Assembly: GCA_050250855.1 (NCBI GenBank) | Contig: JBFWNW010000001.1 | Coordinates: forward strand, 96,001-160,000 | Direction: 5' to 3' | DNA length: 64,000 nt | DNA from: Candidatus Babeliales bacterium | GTDB lineage: Bacteria > Babelota > Babeliae > Babelales > JACPOV01 | Part shown: positions 7,320 to 42,297 of the stretch, piece by piece | Numbering within the stretch: the stretch's first letter is position 1 | Layout of the letters: every line of letters starts with the position of its first letter | Translations under genes and position numbers: made by a program | The notes under the pieces: generated by a model | Database searches by the model: none | What the model was told of the DNA's origin: nothing | What the model saw: only the letters and a program-made list of their open reading frames with translations

Positions 7320-7495
7320 CGTTCGTGGTGAGGAGTCCGGCGTAGTTTAACGAAGCCTGGACATCTCGAACCATTCGAACTCAAATTTAAAAATTATATA
7401 TTTTTTAGGATTCCATTATGGTTCGAGACGCAAACTAAATAAGTTTGCTCCTCACCACGAACGGAATTTAAATATTCTTAATAATCGATTGATTC
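7320..7495. repeat. Composite palindromic repeat element
   Basis: cgttcgtggtgag...tctcgaaccat / atggttcgag...ctcaccacgaacgg inverted arms; AT spacer and right flank shared with 20871-21095. Confidence 0.85.
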
Positions 7496-17594: not shown

Positions 17595-17812
17595 TCCTTC
17601 CCAGGCTTCGCATAAAGCTTCGCCGGGCAGGCTGATACATTTTTCTTTTCGGAAAAACACTCCCTTCGATAAATTCAGGACAGGCAGGATGAGCGCAATA
17701 GTTAAAAAGCGCTCGTGTCCCTCGATGCACCAAGCAAAGCTTGGCACTCGGGATGATCGGGAGAGAGTTGATTAGCCTGTCCGCCGAAGTCTTGACGAAG
17801 GCTGGAAACCAT
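17595..17812. repeat. Nested composite palindromic repeat cluster
   Basis: Several hairpin modules; 17713-17812 is an inverted copy of about 20959-21057. Confidence 0.85.
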
Positions 17813-17835
17813 AGCGCTCAGTAGCTCTCAGTAAA

Positions 17836-20870: not shown

Positions 20871-21095
20871 CGTTCGTGGTGAGGGTTTTTCGAAGAAAAA
20901 TGTCTCGAACCATTCGAACTCAAAATTTAAAAATTTATATATTTTTTTAGGATTCCGTATGGTTTCCAGCCTTCGTCAAGACTTCGGCGGACAGGCCAAT
21001 TAACTCCCCCCGATCACCCCGAGTGCCGAGCTCTGCTCGGTGTATCGAGGGGCACGAACGGAATTAAAATAATTCTTAATAATTGATTGGTTTAT
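20871..21095. repeat. Composite palindromic repeat element with nested modules
   Basis: Left arm, spacer and right flank match 7320-7495; right arm carries a ~100-bp module matching 17713-17812 (inverted). Confidence 0.85.
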
Positions 21096-26855: not shown

Positions 26856-26886
26856 ACTTGTGCTTTTTTCAAAGCCTTTAAAAAAA

Positions 26887-27030
26887 TGGCCGCGCCATAC
26901 AGCCTTCGCATAAAGCTACGGCGTACACGGGCCGAAGCCTGTCCGTTTTCACTTCGTTTCGATGTGACATCACGCCATAGCTATTAGGTCTTGCCCTACT
27001 ACGCCAAGGCTTCGAAGGGCATACTTCGCA
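26887..27030. repeat. Cluster of nested GAA/GTA hairpin repeat modules
   Basis: tggccgcgccatac (also at 27240), cttcgcataaagctacgg (cf. 17605), gccctactacgccaaggcttcgaagggc. Confidence 0.7.
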
Positions 27031-27111
27031 TTTTTCAATCAGAACCATTTTTCTTTTTTATTAATTATCCGATAAAGAAGCTGGCCTGCCATACGTAGCT
27101 TTAGCGAAGTA

Positions 27112-27202
27112 TGGAGGAGAGGGTGGGATTCGAACCCACGAGCCGCTCATCACGGCTAACGGTTTTCAAGACCGCCGCATTCGACCGCTCTGCCACCTCT
27201 CC
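27112..27202 (-). tRNA. tRNA-Ser(TGA)
   Basis: GGAGAGG acceptor stem, CT-TGA-AA loop, long variable arm, TTCGAA, encoded CCA. Confidence 0.95.
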
Positions 27203-27271
27203 AGGAATGTATCTAAAGTTTGCCGAGCCTGAAAAAGACTGGCCGCGCCATACGAAGCTTTTAGCGAAGTA

Positions 27272-27348
27272 TGGTGCGCCTGAAAGGAGTCGAACCCTTA
27301 ACCTTCAGATCCGTAGTCTGACGCTCTATCCAATTGAGCTACAGGCGC
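27272..27348 (-). tRNA. tRNA-Arg(ACG)
   Basis: GCGCCTG..CAGGCGC-ACCA; CT-ACG-GA loop. Confidence 0.95.
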
Positions 27349-27531
27349 ATCAAATTTTTTAACTATTTCAACTATTTTATAGAGAACTTAGTTTATTTCA
27401 AAATTTTTATTTTAACAAGCACAAATTACAGATGAAGACCTTTATGAGCGAAGTAAATTAAGTCGATTCATGCATAGCCTGGCTGTGCCGGCCGAAGTTT
27501 GCCGAGCCTGAAGGCCCGGATAAACGTAGGC

Positions 27532-27622
27532 TGGCGGAGAGAGAGGGATTCGAACCCTCGTGCCCCTTTTCAGGGACTCTTGCTTAGCAGGCAAGCGCTT
27601 TAGACCACTCAGCCATCTCTCC
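27532..27622 (-). tRNA. tRNA-Ser(GCT)
   Basis: GGAGAGA acceptor stem, CT-GCT-AA loop, long variable arm, CCA. Confidence 0.95.
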
Positions 27623-42131: not shown

Positions 42132-42207
42132 GGGCCTATAGCTCAGTGGTTAGAGCGCCCCGCTGATAACGGGGAGGTCGGTCGTTCAATTCGACTTAGG
42201 CCCACCA
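42132..42207 (+). tRNA. tRNA-Ile(GAT)
   Basis: GGGCCTA..TAGGCCC-ACCA; CT-GAT-AA loop; in the ITS. Confidence 0.95.
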
Positions 42208-42297
42208 TTTTTTTTGATGGTGGTGTCTTAAGGTAAAAAATTTTGACTGATCTTTTGCGCGAACTGCTCCTTATTGCAAGAGCTATTTATCATAAAT

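Follow-up and report, generated by a model that had tools for sequence, protein, structure and literature searches.

What are the hairpins that stand directly behind three clustered transfer RNA (tRNA) genes of a Candidatus Babeliales bacterium, each with an arm that begins inside the tRNA gene itself, and how did they come to be there? The stretch of DNA that was analyzed, referred to below as the window, comprises 64,000 nucleotides (nt), i.e., positions 96,001 to 160,000 of contig JBFWNW010000001.1 (assembly GCA_050250855.1). In our judgement, the three hairpins are quite likely to be gene-less, orphan leader copies of a small cassette located behind the CCA of tRNA and transfer-messenger RNA (tmRNA) genes. 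In its full form the cassette would comprise, in order on the tRNA strand, the CCA, a first hairpin (module A), a spacer (AT-rich in this bacterial order), a second hairpin-bearing element (module B) and a gene for an 80-residue nuclease of the GIY-YIG type. Sequence comparison suggests that such a cassette is probably a selfish DNA element.

Six tRNA genes were called in the window by ARAGORN, with cross-checking against Rfam, which over the window matched ribosomal RNA (rRNA) and tRNA and no other family. Three of the genes are clustered on the minus strand: tRNA-Ser(TGA) at 27112-27202 (Rfam tRNA, 59.7 bits; encoded CCA at 27112-27114), tRNA-Arg(ACG) at 27272-27348 and tRNA-Ser(GCT) at 27532-27622, the latter two being found by both methods and likewise encoding the CCA. 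In a sequence-only reading of the stretch, each had been said to be followed by a hairpin whose 5' arm starts in the encoded CCA, and this is indeed the case at all three. Behind tRNA-Ser(TGA), module A occurs in a short form (27081-27114, minus strand), with CCA-TAC-TTC-GCTAAAGC-TAC-GTA-TGG at 27089-27114 and a tail, CAGGCCAG, at 27081-27088; its hairpin reads CCA-TAC ttc GC taaa GC tac GTATGG on the tRNA strand. The short form behind tRNA-Arg(ACG) (27239-27274, minus strand) consists of CCA-TAC-TTC-GCTAAAAGC-TTC-GTA-TGG and the tail CGCGGCCAG, and its hairpin reads CCA-TAC ttc GC taaaa GC ttc GTATGG; it is a solo module A, in that no module B precedes the next tRNA. Both short copies are matched by the strict pattern and by the motif scan described below, the latter without any requirement for the CCA and, for tRNA-Ser(TGA), from the first C of the CCA. 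The third copy, behind tRNA-Ser(GCT), is of a long form (27479-27534, minus strand), in which CCA-GCC-TAC is followed by a 29-nt inner palindrome (27497-27525), then TTC-GGC-CGG and the tail CACAGCCAG. It too is matched by the motif scan; the A of its CCA lies opposite a C, as a mismatch, and the CCA is unpaired in the minimum-energy fold. A constant tail, C-N1-4-GCCA-(G/T), which was absent from the sequence-only reading, follows each of the three hairpins, so that the consensus of module A in its tRNA-end version is CCA-NNN-TWC-[inner stem-loop]-TWC-N'N'N'-TGG-C-N1-4-GCCA. The remaining tRNA genes of the window (Leu, Ile and Ala) had been reported to lack the module, and inspection of their ends agrees with this. 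Behind tRNA-Ile(gat) of the rRNA operon, the CCA is followed by TTTTTTTTGATGG (42207-42225); a CCA/TGG pairing is possible there, the features of the module are absent, and the resemblance is taken as coincidence.

The genome as a whole (G000; a 1.218-Mb assembly in 11 contigs, ∼36% GC, 95% complete) contains 35 tRNA genes and one tmRNA gene according to ARAGORN. The CCA is encoded in all of the tRNAs but one, tRNA-Arg(cct) at C1:389584-389659, which lacks it at the ARAGORN 3' end. Counted by eye, module A is present behind 13 of the 36 tRNA and tmRNA genes, in the same register and in every case on the tRNA strand. The bearers are Arg-tct, Ser-tga, Arg-acg, Ser-gct, Val-tac, the second Asp-gtc, Arg-tcg (where the closing arm is imperfect), tmRNA, Lys-ttt, Glu-ttc, Ser-gga, Cys-gca and Leu-taa. 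The whole genome was also scanned for the motif arm6-TNC-G...C-TNC-arm6', in which the CCA was not demanded. Of 80 matches, 12 begin exactly at the first C of a tRNA or tmRNA CCA, as compared with about 0.001 such starts expected by chance (80 matches, 2.44 million positions, 36 ends). The loose motif itself is not enriched (80 matches versus 111 in the reversed genome); the corresponding numbers are 40 versus 7 for matches with GC-rich arms and 27 versus 0 for matches starting with CCA, 15 of these 27 being located away from tRNAs.

The tail is still more closely confined. Its signature, searched for loosely, gave 31 matches in the genome, 13 of them situated 15-37 nt after a tRNA or tmRNA end and three at 141-217 nt behind a tRNA (each the second copy of its array), while the other 15 had no hairpin context. 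Tail-bearing module A is thus found only at tRNA genes or within 217 nt behind them, and is specific to tRNA ends in this genome. The sequence-only reading had placed the same module away from tRNAs as well, at 7337, 17601, 17780, 20966, 26901 and 26993. As far as the internal-loop hairpin build is concerned, this holds: the build recurs elsewhere, including the 15 copies that start with CCA, and all six of these positions carry stem-TTC-stem-TTC-stem hairpins. For the tail-bearing, tRNA-end form it does not hold, since the TGG-C-N-GCCA tail is missing from all six.

The occurrence of module A was analyzed further in 81 genomes of the order Babeliales (Dependentiae), which are related and not independent of one another. 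With the strict pattern, 54 of the 81 genomes yielded a total of 316 matches, and the reversed-pattern control yielded 0 in all. Most (25 of 31) of the matches examined, from 29 genomes, start at the CCA of a tRNA or tmRNA called by ARAGORN; the other six comprise one tmRNA end (by Rfam), one tRNA cut by a contig end, one match displaced by 4 nt in the ARAGORN call, one nested copy and two copies behind sequences that are not tRNAs but end in NCCA. An exact match to the 26-nt short form was found in 13 of 41 related genomes, and in 6 of the 7 loci checked the tRNA ends exactly at the match. The element had been claimed to target or capture tRNA 3' ends, and a survey of such ends had been named as a check; enrichment at tRNA ends was found both in this genome and among the pattern matches in its relatives, and likewise in other phyla (see below).

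The nine other genomes of the family all retain the cluster Ser(gct)-Arg(acg)-Ser(tga) in synteny (9/9), which allowed the same tRNA ends to be compared directly. Among the 27 orthologous ends in those nine genomes, six are empty, i.e., the CCA is followed by an AT-rich spacer. Those that are occupied carry short, long or other inner parts, and their arm triplets are TAC, GTC, GCC, GCT, GGC or ACC; even the sister species, from the same genus, differs at all three sites of the cluster. Across the 10 genomes of the family, tRNA sites are found empty, with the hairpin only, or with the nuclease gene. Within single genomes, the module subtypes are uniform (9 of 9 are CCAACC in G016, 8 of 10 CCAGCT in G064 and 12 of 14 CCATAC in G004), and one 34-nt copy is identical across genomes of three families (f1, f6 and f13). 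The pattern looks like copying within and between genomes, not slow divergence in place. The right border could not be fixed from such pairs, the empty site of G009 and the occupied site of G007 sharing only ∼5 nt of flank, which is too weak to use.

In terms of structure, only the long form stands out by its folding energy. As RNA, the Ser(gct) long form reaches −20.9 kcal/mol (z −3.0), whereas the short hairpins of Ser(tga) (−7.2 kcal/mol, z −0.8) and Arg(acg) (−8.0 kcal/mol, z −0.6) fold no better than shuffled sequences, either as RNA or as DNA, the DNA folds being the weaker. The opposite strand, with its loops GAA/GAA or GAA/GUA, folds slightly better. The sequence-only reading had also suggested that 3' maturation could be affected because the CCA would be sequestered in the precursor tRNA; the folds do not show this, the short hairpins being weak and the CCA of the long form being left free. 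The case for the stem rests on covariation for this reason. In a set of 69 distinct copies, collected with a pattern that leaves the variable arm positions free, the three variable positions of the outer stem pair in 186 of 207 cells, as compared with a mean of 119 and a maximum of 141 when partners were shuffled 1000 times, a count that is not a probability because the copies are related to one another. At two of the three variable positions, three or four different Watson-Crick pairs were observed. The closing triplet, which faces the CCA, is TGG in 64 and CGG in 5 of the 69 copies, and on each side the unpaired triplet is either TTC or TAC in 67 of the 69. Such conserved unpaired bases suggest that the element is recognized by a protein and is not simply the stem of a terminator.

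These data bear directly on the possibility that the module is a device of the host, in which the hairpin, the TGGC-N-GCCA element and a T run would form a tRNA terminator or 3'-processing signal under selection, and the nuclease gene described below would merely ride behind expressed tRNAs. All 13 copies in this genome lie on the tRNA strand, and by our own count a T-rich run follows the tail in 10 of the 13. The sequence ATGGCGCGGCCAT with TTTTTTT at 26886-26898, in the array behind tRNA-Ser(tga), was listed as terminator-like by a consensus terminator scan. Moreover, all 10 genomes of the family have the module behind tRNA-Arg(acg), its stem showing compensatory changes, as would suit a conserved host function. 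No RNB exonuclease, and no RNase Z above the cut-off, was found in the genome, which encodes RNase E/G, RNase PH and PNPase, so that the structure of the trailer could matter for trimming. On the other hand, 23 of the 36 tRNA and tmRNA genes of this genome do without the module, as do the 6 empty ones of the 27 orthologous ends in the family. None of the three window hairpins appeared in the consensus terminator scan, and a gap of 9 nt follows the main stem before the T run starts. The short forms are no more stable than shuffles, and where hosts in other phyla are GC-rich, no T run follows the module. Terminators that had arisen independently would also not be expected to keep the same unpaired triplets, to be almost alike at different tRNAs or to share 34 identical nt across three families. 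We consider a host device unlikely as the explanation; the context of a cassette leader accounts for the link to tRNAs better than a role in RNA processing does.

That context was provided by a small nuclease gene. Among the weaker matches of a first GIY-YIG protein search, 21 were chosen for their short span (about residues 3-70) and are designated type 2; in 11 of these 21 loci a tRNA on the same strand ends 92-173 nt upstream. In G004, one of the genes is placed between tRNA-Arg(acg) and tRNA-Ser(tga), the ortholog of the window site. In the type-2 loci inspected, the interval from tRNA to gene always consists of module A, a spacer, module B and the start codon. Module B starts with GCGAAG-N'N'N'-TG, the perfect complement of CA-NNN-CTTCGC, i.e., of the ten bases with which the hairpin opens, counting the CA of the CCA; it continues into a second hairpin with GAAG loops, and the gene starts about 20-30 nt later.

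The type-2 proteins are 79-80 amino acids long and consist of a single domain (PF01541, GIY-YIG) at residues 1-71. In the alignment of 13 such proteins, Tyr, Arg and Glu are kept, which we take to be the residues expected of an active GIY-YIG site. The closest solved chains to the 80-residue protein are UPF0213 BH0048 (1zg2) and SLX1; for the small GIY-YIG proteins, NCBIfam contained nothing above its cut-off and Pfam only PF01541. A profile was built from the 13 proteins, and matches with E below 1e-25 were considered strong. Strong matches occur in 47 of the 81 genomes of the order, in up to seven copies, some of which contain stops. Module and gene occur together in 44 genomes, the module only in 10, the gene only in 3 and neither in 24, a two-by-two table that overstates the link because related genomes are not independent. 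In the best 30 type-2 loci, the signature of module A was found within 400 nt upstream of the gene in 22, and in 13 the gene lies 84-195 nt behind a tRNA on the same strand.

At three loci of relatives (L057, L062 and L064), the nuclease gene is followed by 13-19 nt that repeat the 3' end of the tRNA upstream and then by a second module A, after which L064 also has a second copy of the gene. The duplicated unit can therefore include the tail of the tRNA.

In this genome, the same leader is present without the gene. The 235 nt behind tRNA-Ser(tga) (26880-27114) contain, in order, module A, a spacer, module B, a mosaic of modules and a truncated second tail of module A with a run of seven T residues. 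The AT-rich spacer extends over 27030-27080 (minus strand). Module B (26993-27029, minus strand) consists of GCGAAGTATG, which is the perfect complement of CATACTTCGC in module A, and then the hairpin CCCTTC-GAAG-CCTTGG-CGTAG-TAGGGC; in related genomes, the order A-spacer-B also precedes the GIY-YIG gene. The mosaic of further nested hairpin modules (26901-26992) occupies the position that the nuclease gene has in full-length cassettes, and no open reading frame (ORF) remnant was seen in it. At 26880-26900 (minus strand) follows the second, 5'-truncated module A tail (GTATGGCGCGGCCA) with its terminator-like T7.

Nested or adjacent modules are likewise found behind Ser(tga), Glu, Ser(gga), Cys and Leu(taa). 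Of the 13 copies in the genome, 8 have a B-like module within ∼110 nt and 5, including Arg(acg) and Ser(gct), consist of module A alone. When the first 120 nt after the CCA were aligned between loci, Glu and Ser-gga agreed at 105 of 117 aligned bases, Cys and Leu-taa at 99 of 110, and Ser-tga and Ser-gga at 98 of 114, all three pairs being located on different contigs; Ser(tga) and Glu agreed at 98 of 116. These matches between loci mean that the copied unit, of at least 110 nt, is the leader and not the hairpin alone.

Profile searches of the assembly and of its six reading frames detected no type-2 nuclease gene or remnant in this genome. Its sister species of the same genus, G001, carries a frameshifted type-2 gene behind the tmRNA CCA, module A, spacer and module B, while the tmRNA site of G000 retains module A, the spacer and a partial module B with no gene; in all four further genomes of the family examined, a type-2 gene is present. 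The absence of the gene here and its frameshifted state in the sister are the grounds for regarding the window copies as orphan leaders.

The complementarity between modules A and B would also suit a leader that acts as RNA. In this alternative, the 5' half of module A (CA-NNN-UUCGC) would pair either with its own 3' half or with the start of module B, and the toggle would set both read-through into the gene and release of the tRNA, a remnant of which would be left in this genome. The start of module B is the perfect complement of that of module A at Ser(tga), Glu and Ser(gga) as well as in full cassettes elsewhere; the spacing and strand of the gene behind the tRNA in 13 of the best 30 loci would suit co-expression of this kind, as would the loops of the opposite strand and its slightly better fold. 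No Rfam family was matched, however, and inverted repeats would serve equally well as DNA hairpins. Such a toggle would explain expression of the gene and not its arrival at new tRNA ends, so that it is compatible with the cassette explanation; as an explanation in its own right, we regard it as very unlikely.

A different GIY-YIG gene does exist in this genome. The search of G000 yielded two small UPF0213-like genes, designated type 1, and one 445-residue match. One type-1 copy is an intact ORF of 91 amino acids (C2:236977-237249); the other (C1:93273-93533) has no in-frame start codon and lies between hairpins that contain CCCAGC-TCC-GTTAAAGAAC-TTC-GCTGGG. Type 1 was considered as the tRNA-linked gene and rejected: a tRNA lies within 200 nt in 0 of 19 loci at 50-65% identity (one is ∼1.4 kb away). 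Among all 29 loci of the first protein search, a same-strand tRNA end within 200 nt was found only at L053, at 42% identity, a result on which the two protein types were told apart.

The intact type-1 gene raises the possibility that the orphan copies are still active as a non-autonomous element, moved in trans by the UPF0213-like nuclease. The hairpins that flank type-1 genes share the stem-TYC-stem-TTC-stem core with module A, and different tRNA loci agree at 85-90% of positions over units of 110 nt or longer, a level of identity that suggests the copying is not ancient. In contrast, the type-1 genes are not beside tRNA ends, their hairpins have other outer arms (CGTTCG...CGAACG) and lack the TGG-C-N-GCCA tail, and module A co-occurs with type 2 and not with type 1. 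Movement in trans by type 1 thus appears quite unlikely.

A second family of hairpins was observed in association with the start-less type-1 gene. Outer arms CGTTCGTGGTGAGGAG...CTCGAACC surround the same TTC/TAC-loop core at 7320-7375 of the window and at C1:93150-93740, in L010, a region that brackets the gene and is situated about 2.3-2.9 kb upstream of the start of the window. The arm CACCACGAACG occurs in ∼35 copies in the genome.

The cassette extends well beyond the order. When the type-2 profile was run on a collection of species-representative genomes, at least 583 relatives were found, of which the best 80 loci were inspected. By record title, the relatives include Alphaproteobacteria (Bradyrhizobium, Rhizobium, Mesorhizobium), Geomonas, Acidobacteriota, Verrucomicrobiota, Nitrospirota, Planctomycetota, candidate-phyla bacteria and TM6; cultivable carriers among them are Bradyrhizobium tropiciagri, Rhizobium tropici, Mesorhizobium neociceri, Reyranella soli and Geomonas paludis. 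In 58 of these best 80 loci, a tRNA or tmRNA on the same strand ends within 400 nt upstream of the gene. The hairpin start CCA-N3-TNC-G is present in 49 of the 58, the complementary TNC-N3'-YGG closure in 45 and the tail in 42, and on these counts the CCA-anchored hairpin is a trait of the cassette family, not a peculiarity of this genome.

How, then, might such a cassette spread? The association of gene and leader suggests that the nuclease would do so, either by repair of the homing type or by hairpin-guided cleavage of single-stranded DNA as in the Ssn nucleases discussed below. The hairpin with its unpaired TWC triplets may be what the nuclease reads or, alternatively, a mask of the target. 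The copies in this genome would then be relics, which might act at most as weak tRNA terminators through the TGGC-N-GCCA mini-hairpin and the T run. A more specific version can be offered only tentatively, and we think it rather less probable than not: CCA-TGG-CCA would act as a guide at the DNA level, in which the TGG pairs either with the CCA of the tRNA (the long hairpin) or with the terminal CCA of the element (TGGC-N-GCCA) and thereby positions the nuclease for its cut in single-stranded DNA. The cassette would then be a transposase-free mobile element inserting right behind the universal 3' end of tRNA and tmRNA genes, with the single trinucleotide that all tRNAs have in common as its target, and the orphan hairpins would protect the site from being cut again while serving as weak terminators.

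Several observations weigh against the explanation as a cassette, beside the T-rich runs and the constant occupancy of tRNA-Arg(acg) noted above. Ten of the 54 module-bearing genomes have no type-2 gene, and three gene-bearing genomes have no strict match to the module. ARAGORN placed a same-strand tRNA end within 350 nt upstream in only 15 of the best 30 type-2 loci, and several type-2 genes stand behind non-tRNA sequences ending in NCCA. Module A was found downstream of the gene in only 2 of those 30 loci, and neither a defined right end of the cassette nor a clean target duplication beyond the CCA...CCA repeat could be shown. For every member, the part played by the nuclease in spreading is read from association alone. 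Finally, in an assembly that is 95% complete and in 11 contigs, a missing gene is no proof of absence.

In several relatives, module A and the nuclease gene follow a conserved stretch of ∼85 nt that is not a tRNA and ends in ...ACACCA or ...ACGCCA; three groups of such stretches were seen (L105/L121/L108/L089, L111/L099/L211 and L107/L115). They gave no match in Rfam and no convincing blastn-short match in G000. The stretch may be a small RNA gene of a new kind with a tRNA-like NCCA end.

Other repeats of the genome share parts of the hairpin build. In many copies of module A from several families, the short GC-TAAA-GC loop is replaced by the 29-nt inner palindrome GYTTATCCGGGCCTTCNGGCTCGGCAARC, as at 27497-27525. 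Much as an independent insert nested in the modules would, the palindrome is also found in reversed orientation inside module B of G004 and on its own as a fragment; in the window, such a fragment of the palindrome of long-form modules, CAGGCTCGGCAAAC, was recognized at 27219-27232 (minus strand) by comparison with long-form copies. A repeat of ∼240 bp at 17598-17830, with a related copy at 20966-21060, is bounded by inverted hairpin modules, the left one being CCAGGC-TTC-GCATAAAGC-TTC-GCCGGG and the right one GCCTGTCCGCC-GAA-GTCTTGAC-GAA-GGCTGG. Eleven modules of the type CCAGRC...GYCGGG were counted in the genome; all begin with CCA and have an A.G mismatch, and none is located at a tRNA. 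In sequencing archives, at least half of the window was present in only two DNA metagenome runs, both from one study, and RNA runs contained 0.05-0.07 of its words.

If the explanation as a cassette is correct, the element would be a very small selfish one, with a leader of roughly 85-200 nt (84-195 nt as measured from tRNA end to gene) and a 240-nt gene, and the CCA end of tRNA and tmRNA genes would be a landing site in bacteria from Dependentiae to Bradyrhizobium. It would account for GC-rich repeats behind tRNA genes in reduced genomes that have lacked an explanation, and would add to the Ssn single-strand nucleases a second, differently organized partner system; an 80-residue enzyme with a hairpin-defined target could also serve as a tool. 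In annotation, such hairpins should not be taken as extensions of tRNAs, as terminators by default or as att sites. In the literature searched, judged by titles and the openings of abstracts and with subscription journals mostly outside the search, no tRNA-end hairpin/GIY-YIG cassette and no account of repeats in Dependentiae was found.

Among known systems, intrinsic terminators share with module A a GC-rich hairpin behind a stable-RNA gene, often with a T run after it in this AT-rich lineage. They differ in the points already given: the 9-nt gap between stem and T run, the weak short forms, the conserved loop bases, the near-identical copies and the lack of T runs in GC-rich hosts. As regards integrative elements that target tRNA genes, which have an integrase or recombinase and form att repeats from the tRNA 3' end, the inserts in this genome are 30-240 bp long and contain no ORF, and the 13-19-nt copies of the tRNA 3' end were seen behind the gene at L057, L062 and L064. 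Free-standing GIY-YIG homing endonuclease genes are known from tRNA clusters, e.g., SegB of phage T4; the Seg proteins are larger (roughly 200 amino acids or more) and have a DNA-binding domain. The likeness lies in a GIY-YIG gene among tRNA genes, in its presence or absence between relatives and in its selfish character. In contrast to Seg, the proteins described here have 80 residues and the GIY-YIG domain only, are preceded by a CCA-anchored double-hairpin leader and occur in cellular genomes of many phyla.

REP/BIME repeats are mobilized by RAYT proteins, Y1 transposases of the IS200/IS605 type. They resemble module A in being short extragenic palindromes with conserved unpaired bases, which form mosaics, are homogeneous within a genome and are linked to a single-copy nuclease gene; the enzyme here is of the GIY-YIG type, and there is one defined kind of site, after the tRNA CCA. 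A REP/RAYT system was rejected for this genome, in which a search for Y1 transposase (PF01797) gave 0 matches at E up to 1, while the control search matched 10 of 14 reference genomes.

REP and RAYT are mentioned in the Discussion of the paper on Ssn (Chenal et al. 2025, PMC11893778), which describes the system that is closest to ours. According to that paper, Ssn proteins are GIY-YIG proteins of 94 amino acids, defined as the cd10448 clade, that bind to single-stranded DNA at a directional hairpin and cleave it next to that hairpin, and the layout is likened there to insertion sequences. Both systems combine a very small, single-domain GIY-YIG protein with a hairpin repeat of 20-50 nt, which each genome has in many copies and whose orientation is given by non-palindromic flanks. 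According to the same source, a typical Ssn gene has repeats to either side of it, whereas module A lies upstream of the type-2 gene in 22 of the best 30 loci and downstream in 2, and a two-sided, Ssn-like flanking of the type-2 gene was rejected on the latter count. The core of the repeat dRS3 described in that source, ATTCCC-N8-GGGAAT, occurs 0 times in G000 and is unrelated to the consensus of module A. A term search of the paper (PMC11893778) found neither tRNA nor CCA, while in the present case the site is the CCA end of tRNA and tmRNA genes. The Ssn family is the only parallel known to be characterized. We have filed the cassette with elements of the kind made up of a hairpin repeat and a small nuclease, and the copies in the window as its decayed, gene-less form.

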